The notes under the pieces are model-generated. The model did not search any database. It worked only from the letters and a program-made list of their open reading frames with translations, and had not been told where the DNA came from. From positions 1-62,443 of the forward strand of contig JAGDBK010000068.1 of assembly GCA_017959065.1 (NCBI GenBank): 62,443 nucleotides of DNA, written 5' to 3'. This DNA is from Clostridia bacterium. Lineage in GTDB: Bacteria; Bacillota; Clostridia; Oscillospirales; CAG-272. Shown piece after piece: positions 529 through 35,018 of this stretch; position 1 is the stretch's first letter; each line of letters begins with the position of its first letter. A program made the translations under genes and the position numbers.

Positions 529-1857
529 CTAAAGAGTAGCTATAAATAATAAGATCATAAACAGCAACGAAACTGCACCTATGGTGATCAGACTGGCCAA
601 CGCTCCTTTTTTGCAGGCTTTGTAGTTGCGGATATAATTTTTCCCGCGGAAAATAAACGCGGCTATCAGTCCAGGAATCGGAAGCAGGAACGACAGGATA
701 ACGAGCCAGATGCTTCCTGTGTCATATTTCGGCCTGGTGAGAATATAGTTTGCACCGGACAGATCCGCGGCCTTGACTCCCTCGGCCCTTTTCTCCTCTT
801 CCTTCCGCTTCTTTTCTTCCTCTGAAAGAATAGTGATCGGCTTCAGCGGTACATTGGCCTCTCTCTGTTCCTTGTATTTCCTGATCTCCTCCTGGTTTCC
901 GTAGATCCAGTGATCGTGCCCGATATTTACCAGCTCGGGCTTGTCTGTCGAGTAGTCATGGATGGAAGGATCATATGTATACAGATGCTTGTTCTTCTCA
1001 AGGATCGGGTCCGGAATGGGTATCGCCGAAATAAGCGAATGAGTATAAGGATGAAGCGGGAAATTAAACAACTCGTCCGTACCCGCTATCTCCACGATGT
1101 TCCCCTTGTATATTACCGCGATCCTGTCTGAGATATATCTGACTATCGACAGGTCGTGAGCAATAAACAAATACGATACGCCGCGCTCCTCCTGGAACTT
1201 TTTCAGTAGGTTGAGGACCTGCGCTCTGATAGACACATCCAGTGCGGAGATCGGCTCGTCGGCAATCACAAGCTCCGGCTCCATAACCATCGCGCGGGCC
1301 AGGCCTATCCTCTGTCTCTGTCCTCCGGAAAACTCATGCGGGTACCTCGTAAGGTGTTCCTTGAGAAGCCCGACCTCGTCTATCATTTCCTCAACTTTTC
1401 TGACCCGGTCTTTTTCGTTTTCGTAAAGATGGAAGTTATAAAGTCCTTCGGAAATAATATAGTCGACTGTTGCGCGCTCGTTCAGAGAAGCTGCCGGATC
1501 CTGAAAGACCATCTGGATGTTCCTGATGACTTCTCTGTCCAGAGCTCTCGATATTTTGCCGGAAATCCTCTTGCCTTTGTAAAGGATCTCACCTGCCGCG
1601 CAGGGATTGACTCTGATGACCGCCCTGCCGACCGTTGTCTTACCGGAACCCGATTCACCGACCAGCGAGAAGATCTCTCCCCTGTAAATATCGAAGCTGG
1701 CATTTTTCACCGCCCTGACGGCATTGCTGCCTTTCCCGAAGGTAATATCGACATTCTTGACTTCAAGGAGCTTTTCTCTTCCGTTTTCGTCAACCGGTCC
1801 GTGCTCGGGCAGTATGCGTCCTCTGCTGCGGGAGGATTTTTCTGTATTCTTATCCAT
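529..1857 (-). CDS. oppF: Oligopeptide ABC transporter ATPase OppF/AmiF with C-terminal two-TM extension
   Basis: Walker [17 protein letters not shown] signature, IADEP Walker B, HPYT oligo_HPY motif; hydrophobic C-terminal tail. Confidence 0.92.
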
Positions 1858-1871
1858 TATCTTTCTCCTCC

Positions 1872-3620
1872 CTAAATGTTGAACGCTTCAATGAGCTTGC
1901 CGTGTATGTCTTTTATTATTTCGGGCTTTTCAGTCTGGGGAGCCCTTGGATCAAGCAGCCAGGTTTTTGCCCAGTGTGTCTCGCTGACTTTAAAGAGCGG
2001 GGGCTCCGCGAGAGTATCCACTTTCAGGCAGTAGGGGTTACGGGGTGCAAAGGCGTCTCCGACAATTTTGTTGTACAGAGACGGCGGAGTTCCCGTGATC
2101 GAATACAGCTTCATGCCTTTCTGAGCAAGCTGAGGGAGAGAGGAAAGAAGCGCCCATGTGTAGGGATGCTTCGGGTCGTAGAAAACCTCATCTACTTTCC
2201 CCAGTTCAATAAGCTGACCGGCATAGAGCACGGCAACTCTTTCAGCAACGTTAGCCACCACGCCCAGATCATGGGTGATGAACACTATCGTATAATTGTA
2301 TTCCTTCTGAAGAGCTTTAATCAGTTCAAGTATCTGCGCCTGGATGGTAACATCAAGAGCAGTGGTAGGCTCGTCGCAGATAAGTATTTTGGGCTGGCAC
2401 GAAAGAGCTATCGCTATAACTATCCTCTGCCTCATTCCTCCGGAATACTGGAACGGATAGTCATCGAAACGCTGGTCGGCATTCGGTATTCCCACCTGGT
2501 ACATAAGCTTTAGCGCTCTCTGACGCGCCTCAGCCTCGGAACAGTTCTGGTGCTTCAGTATGGTTGAAGTGATCTGTTTCCCGATCGTGATGATGGGGTT
2601 AAGGCTGGTCATGGGATCCTGGAACACGGTCGCTATCTTGTTGCCGCGGATCTTTTCCCAGTCTTTCGGATATTTTATCTTTGCAAGGTCAAGCACACAG
2701 CGTCCGTGAAGGGTGTTTTCATTTTCGTCTGTGTAATTGACTCTAAGCACATTGCCGCTGTAAACATTTTCGCGAACTGTTTCGTCGCCTATGTCCTCGC
2801 CCATTTTCATGGCCTTTTTGAAAGATCTGAGCAATGTGTTGATGCCTTTTATCCTTCTGAAGAAACTGTATCTTCCTACAGAAAGATATAATTCTTTGGC
2901 CACTTCCAGGTTTCTGGCAGTCTTTTCTTCGGTTATTTCTGCGGAAATCTCAGATTTGTATGCTTTTTTGAGTTCCGCCATTTTTTTCGAATATTCCCTG
3001 TTGTATTCAATATTATTTGACAGGTCTTTTTTTCTGGCCGAGATCAGAGCACGTCTTTCCTTTTCGAGATTTTTAATCTCTTCCTCATATTTTTTGATCT
3101 CCGCCTCGGTCTTGTCTATCTGTTCCTTGTCTGCTTTTCTGTCGAGGGTCTGCTTGAAATTTCCGGCCTCAGTAAGTTTGTACTTCAGATCGGAGATGGC
3201 ATCGTTTATCCGGACATCGTCTTCGTCGGAAATGATCTTTTTTGATTTCCGCTCGGATTTAAGCCCGATCATCGCCTTGTACGTCTCGCCGCCGTTCTCA
3301 AAACTGGAATAGCTGTCGAGCTTGTTGGCAATGTGCTTGACCGCGAATTTGCCGAATCTGCCCAAAGTGACTGAGGTGTCGGCAAGTTCGTCATCGTTGA
3401 AGACTACCGATCCGTTGGAAATGAAACCGTTCTGGTCAAGCATTCCGGCAAAAGTCTTGGTGAAAACGGATTTACCGGATCCGCTCTCGCCGACGATAGC
3501 TATGGATTCGTTTTCATATATATCCAGACTGATCCCGCGGATGGCGGTCAGGATTCTTCCCCTGACTTTGAATTTAACTTCGACGTCCTTGGTCGAAAGG
3601 AGCACTTTTCTGTTTTCCAT
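1872..3620 (-). CDS. oppD: Oligopeptide ABC transporter ATPase OppD/AmiE with large coiled-coil insertion
   Basis: [48 protein letters not shown]. Confidence 0.93.
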
Positions 3621-3631
3621 AGCCCTACCCC

Positions 3632-4618
3632 CTACATATGGGTTCTCGGATCCGCGGCATCACCGAGGTTCTGTCCGAAGACGAACAGAACTATGGAAAT
3701 GACTGCCGAGATCGCGACAGGGCTCCAGAATTCAAATTCCCATCCGGGAGTGATCATGGCGCTCTGTGCTTCGGAGATCATCTTGCCCAGACTCATTTCC
3801 GAGATGCCCATTCCGATATAGCTGAGAAAGACCTCCATACCGATATACGCAGGTATCTCAAGCGCGGCATATGTCACAATGACGCTGGTCATGAAAGGAA
3901 GGATGTTTTTGGTTGCGATACGCCAGATCGGAGTGCCGAGACATCTGGACGCCATATTGTATTCGCGGTCGCGGATTATAATAACCTGCGTCCTTATGAA
4001 ATACGCGACTGCGAGCCATCCGGTAATGGTCAATGCAAAAACCATCGTCCAGAATCCTGGTTTGAAAATAAGAACTAGAACCGCTATCAGCAGCTCATAA
4101 GGGACGTTTCCGACAATATTGAAGACTTCCGTCATTACTACATCGACTTTTTTCGAAAAGCCCCAGACCGCCCCCGCAAGAATGCCGACGGTCATATTGA
4201 TGAGCGCCACAAGGAAAGCAAGCGAAACAGAGATGCGCGCTCCTGTCCACATAGCGTCGAAAATAGGCTCACCGGCGGATCCGGATCCAAGAATGTAGTG
4301 GATACTGAATCCGAAATAATCCAGCGCTTTCGCGGCGGTCAGATGCTTTGCGTTCGGATCCAGGATATTGGCGAATCTGTCATAGTTGATAAACAGCGGG
4401 TATACATATGTCAAAAGCAGAAGAAGAACGAGAATGCCGATCATAACTATATTGATCTTCTTCTTGAAAAAGACACGGAACACGCTTCGCCAGTATGAGT
4501 ATCTGGGAGCGGTTATTTTCTCCGACTCAAAAGCGGAGTGATCAACATGCGCAAACAGTTCTTCGTCGCTCAGTCCGAATTCGGAAAGATCTACCTGATT
4601 GTTCTCCATGTCTGTCAC
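3632..4618 (-). CDS. oppC: Oligopeptide ABC permease OppC/AmiD
   Basis: OppC N-terminal YSYWRSVFRVFFK, EAA-loop region REYNMASRCLG, C-terminal LGDAADPRTHM, multiple TM helices. Confidence 0.93.
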   Translation of the reverse strand: MTDMENNQVDLSEFGLSDEELFAHVDHSAFESEKITAPRYSYWRSVFRVFFKKKINIVMIGILVLLLLLTYVYPLFINYDRFANILDPNAKHLTAAKALDYFGFSIHYILGSGSAGEPIFDAMWTGARISVSLAFLVALINMTVGILAGAVWGFSKKVDVVMTEVFNIVGNVPYELLIAVLVLIFKPGFWTMVFALTITGWLAVAYFIRTQVIIIRDREYNMASRCLGTPIWRIATKNILPFMTSVIVTYAALEIPAYIGMEVFLSYIGMGISEMSLGKMISEAQSAMITPGWEFEFWSPVAISAVISIVLFVFGQNLGDAADPRTHM

Positions 4619-6186
4619 CTCGCTTTCGATGTGAAGTTGATCCTCGGATCAACAACACTCATAAGAATATCGCCGATAATCAGAGAAACTATGCTCAGAG
4701 CTGCGTAGAACAGTGTAACGCCCACTATGACTCCGTTATCGTAGAAATTAATTGCCTCGATCATCAATCCGCCGACACCGGGAACCACATATACTCTCTC
4801 GGTTATCAGCGCGCCAACAAGCGAGAACAGGATCGCTCCCGGAATTCCGTGGATGATCGGTATGGCCGCGTTCTTGAGTATGTGCTTCCTGAATATCTGT
4901 CCCTCTGAAATACCCGTGGAACGGGCAAACTTAACATAATCCGCATTCTGCTGGTCGACCATGTAACGTCTGAGCCAGCGCATCATTCCGGCGATCGGTC
5001 TCAGCGAAAGCGAAATGATCGGCAGCAGATACATAAGCCACGTCGGATTGTTCATATCAAATGTCGTAGGTATTCCGGTGGCGTTGCCTATAGCCTTTAC
5101 GATAAATATATATGCGAGAGAAGGCATCGCAGTAATGAAAACAACGTAAACCGAACCAATCTGGTCAACGAGCTTGTCTTTTTTCTGGGCCATCCAGATC
5201 GCGATCGGCACACCGAGCAGATATGTCAGAATAACGGAAATAATGCCGATCGTAAAAGAGTAGCCCATTCGGCTCATTCCGTTCTTTACGGTGTCAACGT
5301 TGGTATAGTCATCGGTATATCTTTCGGCAAGAAGCGCACTGGTGTTGAGTGACCCCGCCTGGTATGTGGCTGTATGAAGATCGTCTCCGCTTACTTCCAC
5401 AAACCCCGAGGGATAGTGTACTTCACTGCCGACCCAGGAGCCCTGCGTTCTCGTCATCGTGTCGGTTATCTCCGCGTTCTGCTTGACAGAATAGGATTTT
5501 CCGAGACTTATCGAAACAAGGTTCTGGTGTATGAACGGAAACTGAGAGTCACAATAAAGAAGATATTTGTGATATGTTCCGTTCCCCATCACCGCCGGAG
5601 AAAAAACTTTCCCTCCGTAAGCCGGATCAAACCAGGTGAAGGTGATGCCCCTTTCACCCTGTACCTCCTCGGCGCGGTGAATATTGTCGACTTTAATTAT
5701 ATTTGTAAAATAGTTCCATACCCTGACATACAGAGGAATATCCTTGTACGCAAAGAGCGTCTGATTGCCTCCGACAGCAATTTTTGTTCCGCCCTGCATA
5801 ACAGCGTCAAGGCGCTTTACCGTATATCCCTGGCTCTCGTAATACTCTTTGAACCGCTGTACATATTCCCTGACTGTTTCCGAATCCTTGTCGGGAGTCC
5901 TGCCGAGCTGAGCGACCTTCGTCCTGTCCTCGGCTGCCAGTTCTCCTTTTTTGATCAGTTCGGAGATCCAGTCTCCGTATGCGACATAATCTAGGTACCC
6001 GAAATCTTTCCACTTACGGTATTCATAGACGGTCTTGTTGTTGTTGAGCTGTTTTGTCCAGTTTGAATCATGCGCGAATATGAGTTTTTTATCCATCAGG
6101 GAATAGATCATCACCATTACTATGGCGACGATGACCACGACAGAGAAAATGCCGTGAAGGATACGTTTCAATAAATACTTAGTCAT
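4615..6186 (-). CDS. oppB: Oligopeptide ABC permease OppB/AmiC (large extracellular loop)
   Basis: MTKYLLKRIL start, DYVKFARSTG EAA loop, ITERVY..PG.G, DPRI C-terminus. Confidence 0.93.
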   Translation of the reverse strand: MTKYLLKRILHGIFSVVVIVAIVMVMIYSLMDKKLIFAHDSNWTKQLNNNKTVYEYRKWKDFGYLDYVAYGDWISELIKKGELAAEDRTKVAQLGRTPDKDSETVREYVQRFKEYYESQGYTVKRLDAVMQGGTKIAVGGNQTLFAYKDIPLYVRVWNYFTNIIKVDNIHRAEEVQGERGITFTWFDPAYGGKVFSPAVMGNGTYHKYLLYCDSQFPFIHQNLVSISLGKSYSVKQNAEITDTMTRTQGSWVGSEVHYPSGFVEVSGDDLHTATYQAGSLNTSALLAERYTDDYTNVDTVKNGMSRMGYSFTIGIISVILTYLLGVPIAIWMAQKKDKLVDQIGSVYVVFITAMPSLAYIFIVKAIGNATGIPTTFDMNNPTWLMYLLPIISLSLRPIAGMMRWLRRYMVDQQNADYVKFARSTGISEGQIFRKHILKNAAIPIIHGIPGAILFSLVGALITERVYVVPGVGGLMIEAINFYDNGVIVGVTLFYAALSIVSLIIGDILMSVVDPRINFTSKAR

Positions 6187-6459: not shown

Positions 6460-8667
6460 TCAGAATATACCGCAGGCCTTGATCATACCGCCGGTGATAT
6501 CGGGAAGTACAGTAGCAAGATATGTCTGAGGATCGCCGTAGTCGGGACCCCAACCGGACATAGCCTGGAACTGAGCATTCATACCGTAACCGTAGTCGGG
6601 ATAATATGCAGCCCACAGATAGTTAGCACGAGAGGTGCAGTCAACGAGGACGATCTGGATGAGTCCGTCAGAAGCAGCCTCAACAGACTGTTTGACCGCG
6701 TTGGACATCTTGGTGTTGGCGCTTGAATCGGAGTAGTAGGGCCACTCGATCTTTATCGGGTTGTCCTTGGAGACAGCGATGCCGTCTGCCTGTGCGGCAG
6801 CAAGCTCGCTCTTTGCATATTCAGGATCGTAGAATCCGTCATAGCCGTCGCCGGTGTTCTTCTCTTTGTCCCAAACGGTGAACTTGACACCGTCAGCATC
6901 GAGCTGAGCCTGCATGATCTCTCCGTAGTAAGTGCCAGCCTTGAACTCAGTAGCCGTGCCGTTGATTTCAACAGTGACATCTTCCGGAATGGATACAAAG
7001 TTGCCGGGTACATAGCTGTTTCTGAGAGAAGTGAGCTTGAGCTCTTCGCCGACAGACTCTGCGTTGTATGCAGCTCTGTCAACAGAAGCAAGGAGCGCTC
7101 TGCGGATATGAACGTTCTGAAGAGCGGTGTTGGCGAAATCAGCCTCGCCCTTGGTAAGAGTGGATACAGCAACGCTGGGATCGTTCGAGTTAGCATAAGC
7201 CTTACGGTTGATGTTAACGAAACCGATAAAGGAAGTGGCGTTGGTGTCGGTGATGTACTTGTACTCATCGAACCAGCCGTCCTTCTTGGCCGCTTCAATT
7301 GCGGAAGCGTTGAGGCCGGTAGCGTCGATGACGCGGTTCTTCATGTCGTTGTAATTCTTGAGCTCATCGGTGCCATCGTTGAACTTGAAGGTCAGGGTCT
7401 TGATGTTGACTCCGTCCTTGTTCCAGTAGGACTCGTTTGCCGTATAGGTAATGGTGTTCTTGGAAGTGAAGTTCGAGATGAGATACGGACCGCAGTAAGC
7501 GATGTGGTCCGGATCGGAACCGTACAGGTAATCCTCAGCGGAAGAATCGAATTCTGCTCCGAATTTACCGCCCTGGCTGGTGTAGTAATCTCTGCAAAGA
7601 GGTGCGAAGGGGTTGTAACCGAACATTGTCGTGAAGTACATGCAGGGCTCAGCAAGAGTATAAACGAGAGTATACTCGTCAGTTGCCTTAACGCCGACTT
7701 CGCTGAAGTCTACTTCGCCTGCAAGATACTCGGGAGCGCCCTTGATGGTGAACGCATCGCCTGCAACCAGTCCTTCAAGTCCGCCCTTGGCGTCGAGAAG
7801 ATGCTGGAAACCAGCAACCCAGTCGTCCGCCTTGACATCGGCGACCTTACGTCCCTGGCTGTCAACCCAGACTGCACCCTCGCGGATCTTGAACGTATAG
7901 GTGAGACCGTCCTCGGATACTTCATAAGAAACAGCGAGTGCGGGCTGCTGAACGTTCTCTATATCATACTCGAGGAGCTGATCATAGGTGTGAACAAGAT
8001 AATCGGTATCAGCTGCACGGTATGTTGCGAGAGCATCCCATGTCTGAGGATCTGCCGTGAAGGTGGTGCTGTAGGAATCTTTAATGGTGTATCCCTTGCC
8101 GGTGAGATACTCTTTGACCCATGCCTCATAAGTGCCGGTGCCTTTGAGTTCATTCCACTTGTCGATCATTTCCGCTCTCTCTGCGGGAAGGATCGGGAGC
8201 TCGCTGTCGACCACGATGGTCTTGTAAAGACGAGCTTCATCTGAACCCCAAAGGGTAGTGGTGGAAGTTCTGGGAGCAATTCTGCCTATTGCATAGTTCC
8301 CGCCCTGGGTCGTCGTGGGAAGCATCATGCCGGAGCCGATGAGTTTGCCTTCGGAAAGAGCGAACAGGGCAAAACGCTCTGCTACGGTCTCAGCCTCAAG
8401 AGCCTTGGTGTAAAGCTCATAACTGTCCTTGAGATTTGCATTGTAAAGATCCCAGGACTCCTGGTTGTACGCGGCCTGATCGATCTCCTGATTGTAGACC
8501 TCTGCTGCAGGTTTGCCTGCATCGGGATCTTCTACCGGAGTCTCGCCGCCTCCGGTTGTATCATCCGGAGCTGCTGTGGTCTCATCAGGGTTGGTCGTAG
8601 GCTCACCGCAAGCTACGAATCCAAGGACCATGACCGCCACGAGAAGCACTGCAAGTAGCTTCTTCAT
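6460..8667 (-). CDS. oppA: Oligopeptide-binding lipoprotein OppA/AmiA-AliA family, apparently circularly permuted
   Basis: Lipobox FVAC at residue 20; SBP family 5 motifs VSEDGLTYTFKIR, YCGPY, NESYW, GWGPDYGDP; strong AAGGAGG SD. Confidence 0.92.
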   Translation of the reverse strand: MKKLLAVLLVAVMVLGFVACGEPTTNPDETTAAPDDTTGGGETPVEDPDAGKPAAEVYNQEIDQAAYNQESWDLYNANLKDSYELYTKALEAETVAERFALFALSEGKLIGSGMMLPTTTQGGNYAIGRIAPRTSTTTLWGSDEARLYKTIVVDSELPILPAERAEMIDKWNELKGTGTYEAWVKEYLTGKGYTIKDSYSTTFTADPQTWDALATYRAADTDYLVHTYDQLLEYDIENVQQPALAVSYEVSEDGLTYTFKIREGAVWVDSQGRKVADVKADDWVAGFQHLLDAKGGLEGLVAGDAFTIKGAPEYLAGEVDFSEVGVKATDEYTLVYTLAEPCMYFTTMFGYNPFAPLCRDYYTSQGGKFGAEFDSSAEDYLYGSDPDHIAYCGPYLISNFTSKNTITYTANESYWNKDGVNIKTLTFKFNDGTDELKNYNDMKNRVIDATGLNASAIEAAKKDGWFDEYKYITDTNATSFIGFVNINRKAYANSNDPSVAVSTLTKGEADFANTALQNVHIRRALLASVDRAAYNAESVGEELKLTSLRNSYVPGNFVSIPEDVTVEINGTATEFKAGTYYGEIMQAQLDADGVKFTVWDKEKNTGDGYDGFYDPEYAKSELAAAQADGIAVSKDNPIKIEWPYYSDSSANTKMSNAVKQSVEAASDGLIQIVLVDCTSRANYLWAAYYPDYGYGMNAQFQAMSGWGPDYGDPQTYLATVLPDITGGMIKACGIF

Positions 8668-8831
8668 TTGGAAAAATCCTCCTTAAAATAATTTGCATTA
8701 AGCATAATAATGAACCACGTCAATATTCGTTAGTCCACCAGGTTGCCGGCCGGTTAACCCGACTCCACGCTACAGACCCCGCTCCGCGGAGGGGTCGACA
8801 AAAGAGCCAAGAACGAGCCTAGCATCGCGTA

Positions 8832-8860
8832 ATTGTATCACGCTTTGCCCGTTTTGTAAA
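8832..8860 (-). promoter_or_regulatory. Sigma-A promoter of opp operon
   Basis: Minus strand TTTACA-17 nt-TACAAT with extended -10 TG. Confidence 0.7.
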
Positions 8861-8934
8861 TACTTTTATGAAAATATGAAGATTATTTGAACAAAATTAC
8901 CGAAACAGACAGCTTGTCTGAACTATATGTTCCG

Positions 8935-10212
8935 TCATTCTGCTCCGCTGATCCTGAGCGCTTTCAGCTTCGTTACTTCGGGAATCACCATGGTATCATA
9001 CTGAACGGTTTCCCTTGAGAATTCCATCGTTCCTGCAGCATCTGTCATTGACCCGGAGACGGATCCGCCAGTCACTACACTCACCTCGCCGTCCTTGTGA
9101 AGATACCCAAGTCTGATCTCTCCGGCGATCTCTCCGCTGAGGAAATCCACCTGAAAACTCGAAAACTCCACCACTTCAAGAAAATCTCCGGTCCTGACGT
9201 CCGCCTTGTCCTTCTGTCCGCCTTCAAACACTGCGTTATGGACAATGGAACTTCTGTCGAGACCGACATACTGTGAAAACTGCCTTGAGCCCCAGTAATT
9301 CTCGGCCACGCCGTTTCTTATGATGAACCTGTCGAATATTTCAGATCCTTCTTCGTCCACTTCAAAATCCATGGAGGAATTTTCTAGCCTGCTGACCGCC
9401 TTAAGGGTTATCTTATCACCTTCGCCTGTGCAGACCGGTTCTCCTATCTTCCAGTCGCTGATTTTCCTGTAAACGCTTCCAGCGCTCATTTTGTTAAGAA
9501 AATAGCTGTATATCTTCGCCGCGTCTGAAGTCGAAAAAACGACATCTCCGGTTTTTATCCTCGGAGTCGGGATCGCTTTCAGTCTGTCCCTGCCGTACCC
9601 CATCAGTTTCTCGATATCCGACGTCAGTCTTTTCCTGTCGCAGGTCCCTGATTTAAGAAGTCTGTACAGTTCTATCTCTTCAGATCCGTTTCTAGCGTTG
9701 ATTACGAGCTCAATGGTCGACGAGGGGTATCTGCACCGGTATTCCACGCCGTTTGAATTCAGCGTATATCTTTCTATCTCTTTTGCGAAGATTTCAAATG
9801 AATTGATAAGTTCCCCTTCTGTCTCGTTAACGCCCAGAATACCGTTTATGTAGTCCCGGCATATGCTTTCCACGTCAACCTCGTCGAGTTTTCCGGGTCT
9901 GTCGGTCTTTTTGCTCACGAGACTGTACGCGGGATTCTTCACAAGGCTTGCCTGAAACACCAGATCTCTGATCTGCTTTTCGATCTCTTCGTCATTCGCC
10001 GTCGGAGAGATACGGCAGGAAGCGCACCCCAGGTATTTGCCGCCGTCCGTCGATTTGTAAAGTTTAACATCGTAGTTCTTTTCACGGACGACCCTGTGCT
10101 GATCCAGTTTGTGCCTGATGAAATAGAATTCCCAGCAGACGCTCGCCGTTTCCTGGATCTCCCATCCGTCGCAACCGCTTGATTTCAAATGACTCTTAAG
10201 CTTTTCGATCAT
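8935..10212 (-). CDS. PmbA/TldE-family metalloprotease partner
   Basis: Directly follows tldD; C-terminal DEEG...IIRNG and TGGSVSG motifs; lacks HExxxH. Confidence 0.8.
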   Translation of the reverse strand: MIEKLKSHLKSSGCDGWEIQETASVCWEFYFIRHKLDQHRVVREKNYDVKLYKSTDGGKYLGCASCRISPTANDEEIEKQIRDLVFQASLVKNPAYSLVSKKTDRPGKLDEVDVESICRDYINGILGVNETEGELINSFEIFAKEIERYTLNSNGVEYRCRYPSSTIELVINARNGSEEIELYRLLKSGTCDRKRLTSDIEKLMGYGRDRLKAIPTPRIKTGDVVFSTSDAAKIYSYFLNKMSAGSVYRKISDWKIGEPVCTGEGDKITLKAVSRLENSSMDFEVDEEGSEIFDRFIIRNGVAENYWGSRQFSQYVGLDRSSIVHNAVFEGGQKDKADVRTGDFLEVVEFSSFQVDFLSGEIAGEIRLGYLHKDGEVSVVTGGSVSGSMTDAAGTMEFSRETVQYDTMVIPEVTKLKALRISGAE

Positions 10213-10215
10213 TTT

Positions 10216-11652
10216 TTATCCGAGCCTCGCTTTCATTTTCAGATAAGGACCGCCGTCCGCGACTTTTACCCATTCCTTGTGGCCTTTCCCGCACATTCCG
10301 TTGCCGAATACGCCGCGGTCTGCAGAAGCCATCGAGATCGAACCCAGCAGATCCGGAACGTACCCGGTCATAACGATGGGAGATACGACTTTTCCGGTAA
10401 GTTTTCCGTCCTTTATCTCGTATCCCCTTGAAACGATGCACTGAATGCCCCAGTGCTTGGGATCCTCCATCCCGCTCTCCGAACCCCTCAAAAGAAATCC
10501 GTCCTTTATTGAGCTTATCATTTCCTCAAGAGTACTGTCTCCCGAGTCAAACAATGTGTTTGTCATCCTTGTATATGCCTTGTGCGAATAGCTTTCACGT
10601 TTTCCGTTTCCCGTAGCGGAAGTTCCGAGCCTCAGTGCGCTGAGCGCATCGCAGATCCCGGCTCTAAGAATGCCCCTGTCGATCTCAGTGACGTCCCCCG
10701 CCAGAGTCCCTTCGTCATCGAAAGCATAGGCGGTAACGCTCTCCGCGCACTTTGCACCCTCGTGCATGGTCACAAGATCGCTCCCTACCCTTTTGCCTAT
10801 GTATTCCGCACCCAGAGCGCGTTCTTTTACGAACATATCCATTTCTACGCCGTGACCGAATGCCTCATGAGCGATCAGCCCCGCAACACCCGGATCGACA
10901 ACGATTTCGTATTCTCCAGGCACGATTTTTTCAGCAGACAGCAAGTCGTTCATAGTCTTGGGAAGCTGATCTAGAACTCCTGCCAGTCCGTCGAATATCT
11001 CCGGCCCTCCGCAGCCCGAAACGCCGTCGAAAGCGATTTTAATCTCTCCTTTTTCATCAGCTGAATAGGCAAAGCAATTGCTCTCGGTATAAACATAGCT
11101 CTGCTTGAGGCACCTGTTGCCTGATACGAACATTTTTGAAATGTGCGTTGACGATCCGTTCACTCCGCAGTCTATGCAGTGTTCAACGATCTTGCATCCT
11201 TTGTCCGACAGGGCCGAGAACTTTTCCACGATGCTTCCGATGTCCACTTCTTCCGGAAGAGACCCGGTCTCTTTTTCCACGAACAGGACCAGCGGGGCAT
11301 CTTCAAGGAGCGGAGTGATATACGGCTCTGTGCCGCAGGTCTTCAGCAGTTCAAGCTGTCTGTCAAGCTCTTTTGAAATGCTCTCGGCAGTTCTGCCGAT
11401 ATCAGCCGGGTCAAATTCGTTGAACGCATACTCGCTGTACAGTCCGTTTCTGCAGACTCTTACAACGTTTCCCCGTTCAGTCGTGATGTTCGAATTGGAT
11501 ACCATCTTGCTTCTTTGGGAAATGGATATCCTGAATCCGACAGAATCAGTCGATAGAATGCTTACATAATCGTATCTGTCTGAAAGTCTGTTTACGAGGT
11601 CAGTGACCGCCGGACAGATCGACTGAAGATATGAAGAAAAAGGCGCTTTCAT
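10216..11652 (-). CDS. tldD: TldD-family metalloprotease
   Basis: HEAFGH zinc motif, FDDEG, TGNGKRESY, RMTNT, CGK. Start reassigned to ATG 11652 (GGAGG SD upstream). Confidence 0.92.
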   Translation of the reverse strand: MKAPFSSYLQSICPAVTDLVNRLSDRYDYVSILSTDSVGFRISISQRSKMVSNSNITTERGNVVRVCRNGLYSEYAFNEFDPADIGRTAESISKELDRQLELLKTCGTEPYITPLLEDAPLVLFVEKETGSLPEEVDIGSIVEKFSALSDKGCKIVEHCIDCGVNGSSTHISKMFVSGNRCLKQSYVYTESNCFAYSADEKGEIKIAFDGVSGCGGPEIFDGLAGVLDQLPKTMNDLLSAEKIVPGEYEIVVDPGVAGLIAHEAFGHGVEMDMFVKERALGAEYIGKRVGSDLVTMHEGAKCAESVTAYAFDDEGTLAGDVTEIDRGILRAGICDALSALRLGTSATGNGKRESYSHKAYTRMTNTLFDSGDSTLEEMISSIKDGFLLRGSESGMEDPKHWGIQCIVSRGYEIKDGKLTGKVVSPIVMTGYVPDLLGSISMASADRGVFGNGMCGKGHKEWVKVADGGPYLKMKARLG

Positions 11653-11701
11653 ATTTCCTCCTGTCATTCGGGCGATTTTCTGTTGCTGTGCCTTCGATTG
11701 A

Positions 11702-11730
11702 ATTCTACCATTTTTTGCCTGAAAAGGCAA
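11702..11730 (-). promoter_or_regulatory. Sigma-A promoter of tldD
   Basis: Minus strand TTGCCT-17 nt-TAGAAT with extended TG. Confidence 0.6.
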
Positions 11731-11887
11731 CCTTGTTGACTTCCTCTCCCTGTTTTTGTTCGCTCGCGGACCCTGTTCCGCGCCGGTCCCGGCTTCAAAC
11801 ATTGGAGTTGTTTTCACGGCGTGCTTGTGATATACTATAAATTGAAGTAATATACTATCTTTTCGAAAAATAGATTGGAACCGAAAA

Positions 11888-12694
11888 ATGTATCTTATCC
11901 AGAAAAACGGCATCATCGTGGTCAAAGTCGGAACATCCACGATAACCCATCCTTCCGGAGCGCTCAATCTGCGCGTAATTGAAGACCTGTCAAGGGTCCT
12001 ATCCGACATAAAGAACAGCGGCAGAAAAGTCGTTCTCGTTTCATCCGGAGCGGTCTCCGCCGGGATATCCAGGCTGAGCCTCGACCACCGCCCGCGCACG
12101 CTTGAGGAAAAGCAGGCGCTGGCTGCTGTGGGACAGTCCGAGCTCATGAACATATACAGCAAGTTTTTTGCCGCGTACGGCCACTGTGTCGGGCAGGTGC
12201 TTATGACCCGCGATGTGGTGGATTTCGCGATGAGACGCTCATCAGCCGAGAATACTTTCTCTCAGCTCTTGGCGTTCAACTGCATCCCGATAGTCAACGA
12301 AAACGACTCCGTTTCATCAGAGGAGATACGTGAGGAAGCGAACTACGGAGCCAATGATACGCTTTCTGCATATGTAGCCATTCTGGCCGGCGCGGATCTT
12401 CTCGTAAACCTAAGCGATATCGACGGCCTTTATGACAGCGATCCCAAAGAGAACCCGAACGCCCGTCTTATCTCCAGAGTCGACAGGATAGACGACAGAA
12501 TAATGGCTTTGGCCGGAGGAGCGGGTACGGAACGGGGCACCGGCGGTATGCTGACAAAACTCCGGGCGGCGCGTCTCGCGACGAACGCCGGGATCCCGAT
12601 GTGCATAGTAAACGGCAGCAATCCCGCAGTGCTCTACGATATCATTGACGGGAAAGAGCCCGGGACATTTTTCAGCGCAGTCAACCCAGAATAA
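11888..12694 (+). CDS. proB: Glutamate 5-kinase (no PUA domain)
   Basis: VVKVGTS, VSSGAV, PIVNEND, GTGGMLTK. Confidence 0.97.
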   Translation: MYLIQKNGIIVVKVGTSTITHPSGALNLRVIEDLSRVLSDIKNSGRKVVLVSSGAVSAGISRLSLDHRPRTLEEKQALAAVGQSELMNIYSKFFAAYGHCVGQVLMTRDVVDFAMRRSSAENTFSQLLAFNCIPIVNENDSVSSEEIREEANYGANDTLSAYVAILAGADLLVNLSDIDGLYDSDPKENPNARLISRVDRIDDRIMALAGGAGTERGTGGMLTKLRAARLATNAGIPMCIVNGSNPAVLYDIIDGKEPGTFFSAVNPE

Positions 12695-29541: not shown

Positions 29542-30297
29542 TTATTCTGCTCTATTTCCTGTTTCTAATTCAGCGAGCCGCTTTTCCAGCATGCTGATTT
29601 CGTCTTTAAGTTTCATTATTTCTTGAGCGACCGGGTCCGGAATATGGATCTGGTCGAGATCGCAGTCCGTAACTTTTTCGCCGTTGCGTCTGGTCACTTT
29701 CGCCGGTATACCGACTGCGGTACTGTTGTCCGGAACTTCATTCAACACAACTGCGTTTGCGGCGATCTTTGAATTATTTCCAACCCTAAACGGGCCGAGC
29801 ACTTTTGCGCCTGCCCCGACCATTACATTATCCCCAAGGGTCGGATGGCGCTTTCCGCTGTCCTTTCCGGTTCCGCCGAGCGTCGCGCCCTGATAGATGG
29901 TACAGTTGTCGCCTATCTCGGCTGTCTCGCCTATGACGACGCCGGACCCGTGGTCTATGAACAGCCCCTTGCCTATTTTTGCTCCGGGATGGATTTCAAT
30001 GCCTGTAAGCAGTCTTGCTGTCTGGCTTACCGTTCTTGCAAGAGAATACATTCTTCTCCTGTATAGTTCGTGAGATATCCTGTAGCACAGAAGCGCGTGA
30101 AGTCCCGAATAGAGAAACAGAACCTCCAGGGAAGACTTTGCTGCGGGGTCTCTTTCTTTTATTATCTCTATTTCTTCCCTTATCTGATTGTAAAGGTTTC
30201 TGAACTCGGATGGACATTTTTTCAGTTTTTTCACATAACACGCCGATTTGTCCGCCATAATCCTTTTAATGTTGGAAAAATCAATGTAACTTCCCAT
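29542..30297 (-). CDS. cysE: Serine O-acetyltransferase
   Basis: RDPAA, TGIEIHPGA, IDHG.GVVIGET, TLGGTGK..GKRHP. Confidence 0.97.
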   Translation of the reverse strand: MGSYIDFSNIKRIMADKSACYVKKLKKCPSEFRNLYNQIREEIEIIKERDPAAKSSLEVLFLYSGLHALLCYRISHELYRRRMYSLARTVSQTARLLTGIEIHPGAKIGKGLFIDHGSGVVIGETAEIGDNCTIYQGATLGGTGKDSGKRHPTLGDNVMVGAGAKVLGPFRVGNNSKIAANAVVLNEVPDNSTAVGIPAKVTRRNGEKVTDCDLDQIHIPDPVAQEIMKLKDEISMLEKRLAELETGNRAE

Positions 30298-30351
30298 CTT
30301 TCATTCCTCCTTCCATGTCAGATAGAGATTTCCGTTTAAAACTTATTCTTC

Positions 30352-30380
30352 ATTATATATCTTATTCACGGTTTTTGCAA
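30352..30380 (-). promoter_or_regulatory. Sigma-A promoter of cysE-cysS
   Basis: Minus strand TTGCAA-17 nt-TATAAT. Confidence 0.7.
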
Positions 30381-30573
30381 CAACCTTGAACCGTAACCAC
30401 ATCACTGCCGAAAAGTTTACAAAAAATTTTCATTTTGGTGTTTTTTCCTATGTTTGTCTTTAAAGATCAAAAAAAAGCGGGTTTTTTCACCCATAATTCT
30501 GATTAATCTCCCTTGACACATACAAACTGCACAAATCATTGAGCAGCTCTCATTTGTGTTTTTAAGAGAAAAG

Positions 30574-30602
30574 TTGTTATTTTTCTTTAATAATGATATA
30601 AT
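30574..30602 (+). promoter_or_regulatory. Sigma-A promoter of dnaA
   Basis: TTGTTA-17 nt-TATAAT with extended TG. Confidence 0.65.
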
Positions 30603-30779
30603 TTCTATAAATATATATAAATATATATAATCATTTATAATGTAATTCAGACCGGTTCAGCAGACTAGACCAAAAACAATTGCGGAATAATACCGCAGAT
30701 AATTTTGACCATAGGAGAATGCAGGAAGACTACGGCCGGTGATTTATCTTCCACCTGGTGCGAAAGCCTGCCAACAGTT

Positions 30780-32198
30780 ATGAATTCAAATACTGATATC
30801 GGGAAAATATTCTCTCTCGTCCTTGACACACTAAAGGGCGAAATGTCACAGAGTTCGATCAATCTCTGGTTCGGTGACGTGGTTCTGTTTCATCTCGACG
30901 ATAAAAGAGCCGTGCTTTTAGGTAAAAGCGAATTCAAAAGCGACATCGCCAGAAAACGCTATAAGAAACTGCTCGAGGACAAGTTCAACGATGTCCTTGG
31001 TTTTCCTGTGACCGTTTATGTGTTCTCTGAAGAAAAAGGAGGCGTTCCCGCAGACTATCTGACTCTGCCGGGGAAAGACGATCCCCCGGAATCTCAGGCT
31101 CAGAAACAGGAAAACAATCCTTCCGATATAAAAGCAGGATATGATTATTTTTCCACCGGCGACGAAAACAGAAAACCGACCACGAACTTCTACAACCGGG
31201 ATTATACCTTCAGCAACTTTATAGTCGGAAGCTCCAACAAATTTGCTCATGCAGCATGTATTGCCGTAGCGGAAAACCCCGCGACCGCATACAATCCGCT
31301 TTTCATTTACGGAAACAGCGGACTCGGTAAAACTCATCTTCTCTATGCGATCACGAACGATATCATCTCCAAGCATCCGGAGATGAATATAGTTTACGTG
31401 AGAAGCGAGGATCTGATCAATCAGCTTATAGAAGCTTTTTCAAAAAAAGAAACCGCCCTGTTCAGAGAAAAATACAGATCTGCCGATGTCCTGCTGGTGG
31501 ATGATATCCAGTTTATCGCAGGAAAAGAAGCTCTTCAGGAAGAATTCTTTCATACTTTCAATACGCTTTACGATGCGAGTAAACAGATAATACTGACATC
31601 AGACAGACCGCCAAGAGATATAAAAACCCTTGAAGACAGACTCCGCGGACGGTTTGAGTGGGGCCTGATAGTCGATATACAGCCGCCGGATTTTGAATTG
31701 AGGATCGCAATCCTGAAAGCAAAATCCGAATCGCTGGGCCTTAAGATTCCGAACGAGGTTCTTACCTATCTCGCAGAGAAACTGCAGGATAACATCAGAC
31801 AAATTGAAGGCATTATCAAGAAGATGGGCGCGAAGAGTTTTCTGTCCGGTGTTCCGATATCTCTGGATACTGCAAGAGAAGCGGTTTCTGAACTTATTAC
31901 AGGAAACGAACCGGTTCACGTCACAATAGAAAAAATACTGTCCACGGTATCGGCAAAATACAATGTATCAATTGAAGACCTCAAAGGCAGACGCCGTACA
32001 AAGGACATTGCGAAAGCAAGACATATTGCAATTTATCTGATAAAACAGATGACCGACATCCCCCTGACGAACATAGCAAGGGTCTTTGAAAGAGATCACA
32101 CAACTATCATGTCTTCGGTTGAAGTAATCGAAAGGGAAATAAGAGAAAATCCGTCTACGGAGCTTGAGATCAGCGAACTGAAAAAAGAAATGAAGTAA
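30780..32198 (+). CDS. dnaA: Chromosomal replication initiator DnaA
   Basis: YTFSNF, YNPLFIYGNSGLGKTHL, DDIQF, QEEFFHTFN, RDHTT. Start placed at ATG 30780. Confidence 0.98.
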   Translation: MNSNTDIGKIFSLVLDTLKGEMSQSSINLWFGDVVLFHLDDKRAVLLGKSEFKSDIARKRYKKLLEDKFNDVLGFPVTVYVFSEEKGGVPADYLTLPGKDDPPESQAQKQENNPSDIKAGYDYFSTGDENRKPTTNFYNRDYTFSNFIVGSSNKFAHAACIAVAENPATAYNPLFIYGNSGLGKTHLLYAITNDIISKHPEMNIVYVRSEDLINQLIEAFSKKETALFREKYRSADVLLVDDIQFIAGKEALQEEFFHTFNTLYDASKQIILTSDRPPRDIKTLEDRLRGRFEWGLIVDIQPPDFELRIAILKAKSESLGLKIPNEVLTYLAEKLQDNIRQIEGIIKKMGAKSFLSGVPISLDTAREAVSELITGNEPVHVTIEKILSTVSAKYNVSIEDLKGRRRTKDIAKARHIAIYLIKQMTDIPLTNIARVFERDHTTIMSSVEVIEREIRENPSTELEISELKKEMK

Positions 32199-32600
32199 CA
32201 TTCAAATCTGGATATCCGCATTGTTATTTCACTTTTCCACACACTGTGGAAAAGTCTGTGGATTATTTGCAGATAAGATATTTGTCGTAATTATTGATTT
32301 TTTCCTTTCATTGATTTTTTTCATTCTGATTTTTCTGACACTGTTCCACACAAAACAAACAAAATGATAACAATTATCAGATAAAGGAATGATTAATGCC
32401 GTTTCTTCATTTCTATCTGGCAAAAAACAAAAAGAAGTGAATCACTTATCCAAAGGTAGCACCCAGACAATCATGATGAGTATGATTAGTTTTTCCTTTG
32501 GATAAAGCCAGATTTTGACTTTTCAACATTTTCCACGCCATTAATAATACTGTTAATATCTTTGATTAATGATATATATTAGTAACCGTACGGCAATATG
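32199..32600. other. oriC: DnaA-box cluster and unwinding element between dnaA and dnaN
   Basis: Boxes TTTTCCACA 32233, TGTGGAAAA 32245, TGTGGATTA 32257, TGTTCCACA 32342, TTATCCAAA 32446, TTTGGATAA 32497; tandem TTTTCAACA/TTTTCCACG at 32520-32537 followed by TAA/TAC trio-like repeats and an AT-rich tract. Confidence 0.88.
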
Positions 32601-32699
32601 AAATTATAAATACGGGCATCGCCCTGTCAACCGAAAGGAGGACCGTCATACATGACGGGCAGCGATCTGAATTCGAACGGATAGCTGCATTATATTACA

Positions 32700-33851
32700 A
32701 TGAAAATCCAATTTGAAAAATCATCACTTCTGAATGCTATATCAAGACTTCAGATAGCAGTATTATCAAAGTCGGATTCTCCGGCGATGGAAGGAATACT
32801 GATTAACGCCGACTCTGAAAAGAATTCCGTGATATTTAACACCTTCGACAATGAAAAGGGTGTAAGGATTGAAATGGAAGCTTCCGTGGCAGAAAGCGGC
32901 AGCTATATTATAAATGCACAGAAGCTTATGAATATCGTGAGATCTCTGCCTGATGAGGAAGTACTGCTGAAAGTCGACAGCGGATGCAATGTGACAATTA
33001 CCAGCAGCCGCAGTGTTTTCAAACTGCATTCACTTCCGGGATCTGATTTTCCCGCACAGCCGTATCTTGCAGGTGAGATAGGATTCAAAATTAAGGAGAA
33101 GGAATTTTTGGATATGCTTTCCAAAGTTCTTTTTGCCGCCGGGATCAATCATCAGACCAAGGCTCTGAACGGAGTATATGTTGAAATAAAAGGAAACAAC
33201 GTTAAGTTTATCGGATGCGACGGATTCAGATTCGCAATGTGTGACAAGGTCTGTGAAGTACATAACGATTCTGATGAAGAACTCGACACGAACTTTATTA
33301 TTCCGGTGAAAACGGCTTCAGAACTAGTAAAGGTTCTTTCTCAAAGTGATGATGAGATTCAGATAGAAGGATCGAGAAAGCATATCATCATCAAAGTCAG
33401 AGATATGGTCCTGTTTTCAAGGACAATCGATCAGAAATACATCAGTTACGAAAGAGCGATTCCGCAGAACAGTTCAATTAGCGTAACTGTTAACTCAGGG
33501 GATATTTACAGCGCGCTGGAGAGAGCTCTCCTAATAACTGAAGAAAAGATCGTTGGAGCAGTCAAGAGCTATGTCAGACTGTCTTTTAAAGAAAATGTTC
33601 TGACCATTTCTTCGGAGTCAATCAACGGCAGTATCAAGGAGGAGATAGGAATCTTCCATACCGGAGAAGACATAGACATCGGATTCAATTGCAGATACCT
33701 GGCTGAAACGATGAGAGCCTGCGACAATGACGATATAGAAATCAAGTTAAATTCTCCATTAATGAGCATGGTATTCACTCCCATCAATCCGAAAGAGGGA
33801 GAAAAATATCTGTTCTTCGTTCTGCCGATAAGAATGAAGGAACAGGCATAA
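32700..33851 (+). CDS. dnaN: DNA polymerase III beta clamp
   Basis: Position after dnaA; DFP, GCDGFR, IGFNCRYL, VLPIR. Confidence 0.96.
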   Translation: MKIQFEKSSLLNAISRLQIAVLSKSDSPAMEGILINADSEKNSVIFNTFDNEKGVRIEMEASVAESGSYIINAQKLMNIVRSLPDEEVLLKVDSGCNVTITSSRSVFKLHSLPGSDFPAQPYLAGEIGFKIKEKEFLDMLSKVLFAAGINHQTKALNGVYVEIKGNNVKFIGCDGFRFAMCDKVCEVHNDSDEELDTNFIIPVKTASELVKVLSQSDDEIQIEGSRKHIIIKVRDMVLFSRTIDQKYISYERAIPQNSSISVTVNSGDIYSALERALLITEEKIVGAVKSYVRLSFKENVLTISSESINGSIKEEIGIFHTGEDIDIGFNCRYLAETMRACDNDDIEIKLNSPLMSMVFTPINPKEGEKYLFFVLPIRMKEQA

Positions 33852-33860
33852 AGGGAAGGC

Positions 33861-35018
33861 ATGATTGTTAGAAGCATTCGGCTGGAGAATTTCAGAAACA
33901 TTGAAAAGGCAAAGCTGGATTTTTCCGAAGGGATAAATGTTCTCATAGGAAAGAATGCGCAGGGCAAATCAAATATTCTTGAAGCGGTTTATATTTTTGC
34001 CCAGGGAAAAAGCTTTCGAGCAAAAAACGACAGGGAACTGATAAGATTCGGAGAAAAAAAGGCAGTCATCTCTTTGACTTCAAAGTCTTCAAAAAAGACT
34101 AAAGACGATGATCTTTCAATGGAATATGAGTCTGGCGGAAACAGAGAAGAAACGAAAAAAACCGTAAAAAGGAACGGGGTAGTTGAAAAGAAGATAGGAA
34201 ATCTTCTGGGAACATTCCGTGCGGTTTTGTTCTGCCCTGAACATCTTTTGCTTGTCAAAGGCGGACCTGCGGAGAGAAGAACTTTCATTGATATGGCCAT
34301 TTGCCAGCTTAGACCTGTATATCTTAAACAGCTGCAGCGATATTATGCCCTTCTATCGGAAAGGAACAAACTTCTGAAAGATTCAAAAGAAGACAGAAGG
34401 GTATATGATCAGACGAATGAGCTGTGGGCCCAGCAGTTGGCTGAATGCGCGGGATATATCACATGTGTGCGGGCAGAGTATCTTTCCTTACTCTCAGGCG
34501 CAGCGGAAGACTGTTTTCTCGATATGACCGGAGGAGAAGAAAAACCGGAGTTTTTGTATAAGACAAGCACGGGTTCTGAAACGGACATATTTGATGAAAA
34601 GGCTGTCACTGACAGATATTACAGTCTTTACTGTTCCGAAGGAGAAAAAGAGCTGCTTGCCGGAATGACTCTGTGGGGCGTACACAGAGATGATATACAG
34701 ATAACGATAAACGGAAAAGAAGCAAGATTTTTCGCCTCACAGGGACAGGACAGGTCGCTTGTCCTTTCTATGAAACTTGCCGAGGGGATAATCTCCGAAA
34801 AAGAGACGGGCGAAGCCCCGGTATATCTGTTCGACGATGTGATGAGCGAACTGGACAGAAACCGAAGGAATTTCCTTCTTGAAAGGTTCAAGGGCAGCAG
34901 TCAGATAATAATCACTTCATGTGAGCCGGAATTCTTCGGAGAAGGCGAATTCAGGACAATAAGCGTCAGCAACGGATGCTACACCTGTCCGGAATGGGAT
35001 GAGGAGCCCGTCAAATGA
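33861..35018 (+). CDS. recF: DNA replication/repair protein RecF
   Basis: NFRN, GKNAQGKSN, GGPAERR, SQGQ, DDVMSELD. Confidence 0.97.
   Translation: MIVRSIRLENFRNIEKAKLDFSEGINVLIGKNAQGKSNILEAVYIFAQGKSFRAKNDRELIRFGEKKAVISLTSKSSKKTKDDDLSMEYESGGNREETKKTVKRNGVVEKKIGNLLGTFRAVLFCPEHLLLVKGGPAERRTFIDMAICQLRPVYLKQLQRYYALLSERNKLLKDSKEDRRVYDQTNELWAQQLAECAGYITCVRAEYLSLLSGAAEDCFLDMTGGEEKPEFLYKTSTGSETDIFDEKAVTDRYYSLYCSEGEKELLAGMTLWGVHRDDIQITINGKEARFFASQGQDRSLVLSMKLAEGIISEKETGEAPVYLFDDVMSELDRNRRNFLLERFKGSSQIIITSCEPEFFGEGEFRTISVSNGCYTCPEWDEEPVK

Follow-up and report, generated by a model that had tools for sequence, protein, structure and literature searches.

A binding lipoprotein of an Ami/Opp-type oligopeptide importer in Clostridia is very probably a natural circular permutant

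The 62,443-nucleotide stretch of Clostridia bacterium DNA (contig JAGDBK010000068.1 of assembly GCA_017959065.1; hereafter the window) carries on its minus strand an open reading frame (ORF), 6460..8667, that encodes a 735-aa lipoprotein of binding-protein family 5. We consider it very probable (about 90%) that this gene specifies the binding lipoprotein of an Ami/Opp-type oligopeptide ATP-binding cassette (ABC) importer and that the protein has the AmiA/AliA/AliB architecture in a naturally occurring circular permutation; the permutation most likely arose once. Pfam PF00496 (SBP_bac_5) was the sole Pfam match in the protein, with residues 241-720 aligned to profile positions 3-360 of 368 (135 bits; cut-off 32.4). 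About 200 residues stand ahead of the usual family-5 start (YSTTFTADPQTWD, from residue 199), and this start aligned with the first ordered residues of AmiA, AliB, AliC and AliD. At the other end, GWGPDYGDPQTYL occupies residues 705-717, and the C-terminus comes 18 residues further on. The initial annotation of this DNA had said that the protein ends soon after GWGPDYGDPQTYL, which is correct, and had proposed that residues ~79-175 resemble the Ami/Ali C-terminus, which was confirmed by the profile matches described below.

When the whole protein was compared with all PDB sequences by phmmer, AmiA, AliC, AliB and AliD were the top matches (E 9e-57 to 5e-54), and the next PDB sequence followed at 1e-21. 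The body of the protein (residues 197-719) aligned with AmiA chain residues 14-496 (E 9.4e-57). A second stretch was found in swapped position in the AmiA, AliC and AliB alignments (for example, residues 75-178 with AmiA chain 520-625), each of these matches being individually weak; residues 55-200 as sole query gave one PDB match, AliB 522-610, at E 0.002. Two profiles were also employed. Profile A1, comprising 31 full-length homologues, aligned its body (205-739) with AmiA 15-500 and, independently, its N-terminal block (80-180) with AmiA 516-620 (independent E value, i-E, 3.5e-5) and with AliB 515-608 (i-E 4.1e-6). Profile A2 was restricted to the block and drew on 36 sequences, one from the window and 35 from genome loci. 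Searched against 177,635 PDB sequences, it returned four matches at E≤1, all of them at chain residues 508-621, namely AliB (3.4e-8), AliD (6.5e-8), AliC (1.9e-7) and AmiA (4.9e-7). At the level of sequence, the resemblance of the block to the Ami/Ali C-terminal region is far beyond chance. Given that the body match ends at chain residue ~500-506 and the block match starts at ~508-516, the Ami/Ali chain is covered a single time by the two pieces, which do not overlap and leave no gap between them. A scan of the N-terminal part alone against NCBIfam returned 0 families at E≤1, and Pfam scans of the homologues P0019, P0049 and P0084 (precomputed extra domains) placed no match on the block.

The swapped order was also evident against relatives of canonical chain order. 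In BLASTP, residues 192-734 and 70-175 of the window protein aligned with residues 31-581 (E 2e-65) and 592-695 (E 3e-11) of P0252 (698 aa), respectively; with P0254 (747 aa), residues 199-720 and 48-173 aligned with 78-612 (E 2e-73) and 600-737 (E 8e-14). P0252 and P0254 were the closest canonical proteins found (96-97 bits to the block profile, among the best 150 of 397 matches). They bear lipoprotein signal peptides, and their identity to the window protein is 30% in the body and 33-36% in the block; unlike in the window protein, their block is C-terminal, at 592-695 and 631-737. The earlier proposal, that about 100 C-terminal residues have moved to the N-terminus, is in its core upheld by swapped-order matches in phmmer, in the profile searches and in BLASTP, the moved part of the AmiA/Ali architecture measuring ~100-130 residues. 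A resemblance between 'PDAGKPA' in the tether (residues 48-54) and 'PDYGDPA' in P0254 was considered as a motif relic and rejected as chance; it is not conserved in homologues.

This arrangement was found throughout the homologues. The 120 best homologues in a 5.8-billion-protein collection were 702-780 aa long, with 52-97% identity and a query coverage of 91-100%. In 31/31 aligned homologues, the block lies in frame behind a lipoprotein signal peptide and the chain stops at the same column, ...G(I/L/M/V)(F/Y). A scan of species-representative genomes yielded at least 565 relatives, of which the best 80 were analysed; all statements on 80 loci below refer to these best 80 of at least 565. By tblastn, the block was upstream of the body in 80/80 loci and downstream in 0/80 (one locus was cut at a contig end and one match was split in two). 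The records, all from gut and rumen Clostridia, are of Oscillospiraceae, Ruminococcaceae, Acutalibacteraceae, Lachnospiraceae, Roseburia, Acetatifactor, Faecalibacterium, Faecousia, Fusicatenibacter and Clostridium sp. CAG:138. The isolate Roseburia sp. 831b likewise has a homologue with the same order. Mean pairwise identity was 0.54 for the block, 0.65 for the body and 0.32 for the tether that precedes the block; conservation of the block thus comes close to that of the body.

The predicted structure was examined next to the sequence data. An AlphaFold2 (AF2) model computed with the A1 alignment had a mean predicted local distance difference test score (pLDDT) of 85.4 and a predicted template modelling score (pTM) of 0.80. 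Ten-residue means over residues 51-200 ranged from 82 to 98, and disorder was confined to the tether (pLDDT <50 at residues 17-43). The first part of the block was modelled as two helices and a strand (helices 64-90 and 95-111, strand 115-120) at pLDDT 83-92. With VIA-align, model residues 195-735 were superposed on residues 33-533 of 627 of AmiA (8a42_A), with Z 29.1, a root-mean-square deviation of 2.1 and 489 residues aligned; within the Ami/Ali set, AliB, AliC and AliD gave Z 27.6-30.8 at 31-33% identity. OppA, DppA, MppA and NikA gave Z 19-25 over model residues 195-735, and the protein thus has the bilobate three-domain OppA/DppA fold. The model ended at residue 443 of 517 of OppA (1ola, 1-443) and at residue 435 of 507 of DppA (1dpp, 1-435). 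From the VIA-align spans, each canonical chain therefore runs ~70-100 residues past the C-terminus of the model. Model residues 1-194 were left unaligned, as a sequential aligner must leave them in a permutant. Judging from sequence homology and the confident full-length model, the block would occupy the same three-dimensional position as in AmiA.

The anatomy of the permutation was mapped onto AliD. In the published description of the pneumococcal receptors (PMC11192437), domain I of AliD comprises residues 29-63, 191-296 and 583-617, domain II comprises 64-190 and domain III comprises 297-582, and alpha19 (622-652), the C-terminal hallmark helix of Ali proteins, packs on lobe 1. On these limits, the C-terminus of the model corresponds to approximately AliD 526 (combined chain and entry numbering), inside domain III, and the chain is opened ~10 residues past the helix that follows GWGPDYGDPxTYL. 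The first part of the moved block (residues 62-121; 8305..8484, minus strand, as are all features of this gene), identified by profile matches to Ami/Ali C-terminal regions, contains two helices and a strand and corresponds to approximately AliD 533-582, the end of domain III (lobe 2). The AliD boundary between domains III and I, S582/G583, falls at Q121/G122; G122, G123 and R129 are invariant in 31/31 sequences and are aligned to AliD 'SS/GG' at this boundary. The second part (residues 122-160; 8188..8304; AliD 583-617) starts with the second crossover at G122-G123 and continues with the last domain I strands, that is, the last domain I segment. The third part and the joint (residues 161-196; 8080..8187) contain the presumed equivalent of alpha19. 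Residues 161-191 span 31 residues, as does alpha19, and were modelled as a helix (161-174), an invariant kink at G176-T177-G178 and a second helix (180-190); W171 belongs to a KW pair that is aligned with the KW of AmiA, AliB and AliD, and the sequence alignment covers the first half of alpha19 only, to W171. Residue 195 corresponds to AliD residue 29, its first ordered residue, and by this mapping ~4 residues therefore lie between the old C-terminus and the old N-terminus. The body, as delimited by phmmer and VIA-align (residues 197-735; 6463..8079), then provides the N-terminal part of domain I, domain II, the middle part of domain I, the first crossover (~475) and most of domain III.

Thus, the canonical chain order, in which the domains follow one another as I-II-I-III-I and both ends of the chain belong to domain I, is absent here, and the lipobox and tether lead into domain III helices (residues 62-111) and not, as in the Ami/Ali proteins, into domain I. 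In the rearrangement that we propose, a canonical chain running through domain I, II, I, crossover c1, III, crossover c2, I and alpha19 would have been opened inside domain III, and the downstream piece would have been placed at the front, following the signal peptide, the lipobox Cys20 and a tether of ~40 residues. The moved piece would comprise two helices and a strand from the end of domain III, then crossover c2, the closing strands of domain I and alpha19, and the old C-terminus would have been joined almost directly to the old N-terminus. The initial annotation had expected that hinge connectivity would be altered. This part of it was not supported: according to the AliD mapping, the break lies inside domain III and both lobe-to-lobe crossovers would be kept, c2 at Q121/G122 and c1 near ~475. 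Lobe 1 would then be uninterrupted in sequence (~122-475), with the two parts of lobe 2 (62-121 and ~476-735) on either side of it, and both termini together with the lipid anchor would have shifted from lobe 1 to lobe 2. A changed geometry of the anchor is a reasonable inference from this arrangement.

The distribution of the two chain orders was examined with the A2 profile. At E≤1e-3, a search of a representative library of 1.84 billion proteins returned 397 proteins, of which 234 reached E≤1e-10 and 84 reached E≤1e-30. The best 150 of the 397 matches included 53 cluster representatives of at least 600 aa, 51 with the block before the body and two (P0252 and P0254) with the body before the block; the other 97 were shorter fragments and were left unclassified. 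Among 399 genomes sampled evenly from the same class, 13 had a block match at E≤1e-5. Strong block matches (E≤1e-30) were found in 6/13, the window's genome included, in open frames of 735-781 aa; the 781-aa locus among these (L088) is a divergent permuted member. Weak block matches (E 1e-7 to 2e-12) were found in the remaining 7/13, six of them within frames of 619-661 aa and the seventh at the edge of a contig. The six loci were fetched, and canonical order was found in 6/6 of these 619-661-aa clostridial ORFs (body ~35-533, block 513-631).

A maximum-likelihood tree of the body alone (quick search) was computed from 60 permuted and 6 canonical rows (66 in all), after removal of five rows whose body matches were short (L085c, L090c, P0199, P0237 and P0267). 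All 60 permuted rows fell on one side of a branch with a Shimodaira-Hasegawa-like approximate likelihood ratio test (SH-aLRT) value of 91, so that one change is needed, and P0252 and P0254 adjoined the permuted group when the tree was rooted on the four clostridial canonical proteins. Moreover, the break point and the GTG joint are common to all permuted members. Most likely, then, as far as can be read from the sequences, the permutation arose once, from an Ami-like ancestor, in Clostridia. None of the 53 representatives with 600 aa or more was a tandem-duplication intermediate (block on both sides, or body-block-body); the long proteins, of 968-2085 aa, bear unrelated N-terminal domains instead. 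One of the long metagenomic proteins, P0208 (1260 aa), has the permuted module (575-1259) behind a Ser/Thr protein kinase (22-298) and one transmembrane (TM)-like segment (~345-367); it is a candidate receptor kinase whose sensor domain would be of the permuted Opp type. In six other metagenomic proteins of 967-2085 aa (P0214, P0227, P0233, P0198, P0248 and P0224), permuted modules are combined with domains of surface-anchoring or adhesin type: N-terminal LRR_5 (BspA-type), SLH, Ig or PKD domains occur in this set, and P0224 has C-terminal SLH repeats. Whether the permutation was adaptive is more doubtful. A contiguous lobe 1, a free N-terminus by the cleft or a new orientation might have conferred an advantage, and we regard this as a tentative idea that is rather less likely than its opposite. 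If true, it would explain why the permuted form is the standard Opp receptor of a large gut and rumen radiation of Clostridia (Roseburia, Faecalibacterium, Oscillospiraceae and Lachnospiraceae), and why the permuted module was recruited into Ser/Thr kinases and into SLH-, LRR- and Ig-anchored surface proteins.

An intact oppBCDF operon lies directly downstream of the gene in the window. It consists of an OppB-type permease (523 aa; 4615..6186), an OppC-type permease (328 aa; 3632..4618; OppC_N and BPD_transp_1), an OppD-type ATPase (582 aa; 1872..3620; ABC_tran in two stretches and oligo_HPY) and an OppF-type ATPase (442 aa; 529..1857; ABC_tran and oligo_HPY; NF043078 at 447 bits, cut-off 800), all on the minus strand. 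In OppB, whose best NCBIfam model was MMSYN1_0165, BPD_transp_1 is confined to residues 325-516, and the protein therefore bears a ~270-residue ectodomain like ECD1/ECD2 of AmiC. This loop follows TM1 and resembles the AmiC extracellular domains in size and position; as given in PMC11192437, AmiC has 498 aa, with ECD1/ECD2 at residues 31-278. A full-length long OppB was found 77-273 nt downstream of the binding-protein gene in 80/80 loci. OppC was present in 80/80 and OppD in 75/80 loci, the flank ending in the other five. In the window's own assembly (82% complete), this gene was the sole family-5 match to P0001. The motif GWGPDYGDPQTYL (6517..6555) contains W706 and D709, which align with AliB W500 and D503; among the 31 homologues of A1, W706 never varies and D709 is conserved in at least 90%. 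In PMC11192437, AliB W500 and D503 are described as holding the N-terminal part of the bound peptide. The conserved tail of the protein (G726, M728, K730 and G733) sits at the AmiA pocket-2 residues E524 and T528, by an approximate mapping. The function suggested by these sequence features would most likely be the ordinary one, that is, Venus-flytrap capture of oligopeptides and their delivery to OppBCDF, and by analogy with AliB the bound peptides would have a free N-terminus.

Several points weigh against the interpretation given above. The presumed packing site of the block was deduced from sequence homology and the confident full-length model. When the block was folded alone from A2 (142 residues), pLDDT was 78.1 and pTM was 0.58; VIA-align of this lone block against 48,161 PDB chains returned generic helical hairpins only (best Z 5.9), and Foldseek against the PDB returned none at E≤0.001, with AliC first at E 2.9 and AliB 28th. 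These lone-block fold searches are uninformative, because the block is not an independent domain. Residues 175-196 were assigned to the second half of alpha19 by length alone. The tree contains 6 canonical rows, was built by a quick search, reached an SH-aLRT of 91 (<95), and had its rows picked by similarity to the block. Peptide specificity was deduced from two conserved residues and from the operon. Finally, some of the independent contigs come from RNA libraries, and these are no proof of transcription.

Three other explanations were weighed against a permuted peptide receptor. The order could be an artefact of assembly or annotation, a chimeric contig or mis-joined reads having put the C-terminal piece in front, and the source assembly is indeed fragmented (139 contigs, 82% complete). 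Nevertheless, the same order occurs in the 120 best homologues, which come from several sources, in 80/80 genomes, among them Clostridium sp. CAG:138, and in the isolate Roseburia sp. 831b. Independent assemblies also bridge the junctions in the window itself: a 2,467-nt DNA contig of another study covers 6531-8878 at ~95% identity, a 100%-identical DNA contig covers 6367-7623 and spans the stop codon, and metatranscriptome-library contigs from two studies cover 7486-8745, including the joint of block and body and the start codon. The DNA contigs refute misassembly, which the initial annotation had named as a concern, and leave an artefact practically negligible. Alternatively, the N-terminal block could be an unrelated helical add-on of chance resemblance in a C-terminally truncated OppA. 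That the single-sequence match of the block was weak (E 0.002, to one PDB sequence) and that the lone folded block lacked a specific structural match would fit this explanation. However, the profile was specific, with 4/4 matches in the same Ami/Ali C-terminal region at E values down to 3.4e-8; the pairwise E values against canonical relatives were 3e-11 and 8e-14; and what the C-terminus lacks is exactly what stands at the N-terminus, down to the hinge Gly-Gly and the second crossover. Moreover, without the block, domain I would be short of its last strands. We therefore regard an add-on as very unlikely.

A third explanation accepts the permutation and holds that the protein has left peptide transport and serves as a sensor, an adhesin or a receptor for a non-peptide ligand. 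Some family-5 proteins bind nickel, haem, opines or sugars, and relatives that fuse the permuted module to a Ser/Thr kinase or to SLH, LRR_5, Ig or PKD domains show that the module is used outside transporters. Against this, the gene heads an intact oppBCDF operon in the window and in 80/80 loci, it encodes the sole family-5 binding protein matching P0001 in the assembly, the Trp/Asp pair that in AliB holds the amino end of the peptide is conserved, and the closest solved relatives are all oligopeptide binders. A loss of peptide transport thus seems improbable, albeit less so than an add-on, and a permuted oligopeptide receptor remains the preferred interpretation.

The closest solved relatives of the window protein are AmiA, AliB, AliC and AliD of Streptococcus pneumoniae (PDB 8A42, 8QLJ, 8QLH and 8QLC; PMC11192437). 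Like them, the window protein is a lipoprotein with the three-domain OppA fold, carries the GW-GPD-Y motif with the Trp and Asp that bind the peptide N-terminus, retains the start of alpha19 (...KW...) and is partnered by a permease with a large extracellular domain, as is AmiC. Unlike in the Ami/Ali proteins, the segment from about chain residue 508 to the end is encoded first here, and the termini and lipid anchor are on domain III (lobe 2) rather than on domain I (lobe 1). Unlike in the Ali proteins, the presumed alpha19 is internal here, and it is kinked at the invariant GTG. OppA and DppA of Salmonella and E. coli (1OLA, 3TCF and 1DPP) have the same fold (Z 20-24 over ~410-435 residues) and the same PF00496. 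OppA is colinear to residue 443 of 517 and DppA to residue 435 of 507, and the ~70-75 residues that follow in these two proteins have their counterpart in the N-terminal block of the window protein. OppA and DppA have no alpha19 and are periplasmic, whereas the window protein is lipid-anchored.

The NCBIfam models that best matched the four operon proteins checked were MMSYN1_0165, MMSYN1_0167, MMSYN1_0168 and MMSYN1_0169 of Mycoplasma (JCVI-syn1). The binding protein itself scored 116.7 bits against NF043077 (MMSYN1_0169), below the equivalog cut-off of 650, with colinear matches of the body only at model positions 40-135, 261-511 and 647-733 of 896. That the Mycoplasma OppA might also be permuted was considered and is probably not the case; the model is colinear, and ~160 positions remain past the body. 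The OppD-type ATPase is 582 aa long, compared with the usual ~330. It matched NF043079 (MMSYN1_0167) at 708.7 bits (cut-off 740) over model positions 1-556 of 561. ABC_tran was found in two stretches, best at 305-420, so that an insert of ~240 residues lies inside the nucleotide-binding domain; AmiE, in contrast, is presumably of ordinary size. The Mycoplasma OppD shares this insert, and because the window OppD matches the JCVI-syn1 model end to end, the insert is common to gut Clostridia and Mollicutes.

Further features were noted in and around the binding-protein gene. A promoter-like site, TTTACA-17-TACAAT with a TG before the -10 hexamer (8832..8860, minus strand; 10/12 matches in a consensus scan), lies ~165 nt upstream of the start codon; it is a consensus match only, such sites numbering 3 in the region against 2.6 expected. 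The ~165-nt leader (8685-8831, minus strand) contains a weak hairpin followed by a T-run at 8823-8806, and an Rfam scan of 8600-8960 gave no riboswitch or leader RNA match at E≤1. A ribosome-binding site, AAGGAGG (8678..8684), was seen 10 nt ahead of the ATG. The signal peptide and lipobox (residues 1-20, ...GFVAC, Cys20; 8608..8667) were recognized in the translation, with a weak NF050142 match at residues 1-33, and the A-C-G/lipobox pattern is also present in homologues. The low-complexity tether (residues 21-61; 8485..8607) is variable in length and sequence. The stop codon, taken from the ORF list, is at 6460..6462. In the 273-nt spacer between the stop codon and oppB, the frame was not continued, the ORF list contained no ORF like the missing segment, and the terminator scan listed no terminator-like site.

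Directly upstream of the gene, at 8935-12162 on the minus strand, are two ORFs like metallopeptidases of the TldD/PmbA family, of 425 aa and up to 648 aa. For the second, the TTG start in the ORF list probably lies too far upstream, given that the Pfam domain of this ORF occupies residues 415-624. The first of these ORFs adjoins the binding-protein gene in 1/80 related loci (L004); the second ORF was not searched for. Elsewhere in the window, positions 30001-34000 have a G+C content of 0.39-0.41, compared with 0.47-0.55 in the rest, and may be a foreign island.

Few bacterial proteins have been solved or engineered as often as substrate-binding proteins, for example as biosensors and in the form of artificial circular permutants. 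To our knowledge, the chain order of cluster C has been treated as fixed. Full-text literature searches returned no description of a natural circular permutation in an OppA/DppA/Ami-type binding protein. In its main text, the 2026 CIRPIN survey of circular permutations (PMC13552848) contains no mention of periplasmic, solute, ABC transporter or OppA, and the PDB copy searched with the A1 and A2 profiles contained no solved structure of a permuted member. The finding would mean that the fold tolerates opening inside lobe 2 with both hinge strands intact. In the published AlphaFold model of the Ami permease, lobe 2 faces AmiD and not AmiC, and a tether on the AmiD-facing lobe would bear on the docking of tethered receptors. 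Linear domain models also mis-describe the protein. Pfam covers residues 241-720 only, and the first 200 residues carry no annotation at all; as a consequence, the completeness of the protein escapes automated annotation as well as structure-based classification. Abundant gut commensals carry the permuted receptor, and one homologue belongs to an isolate; the receptor is therefore open to direct test. The finding thus bears on protein evolution, on the mechanics of binding proteins and on annotation.

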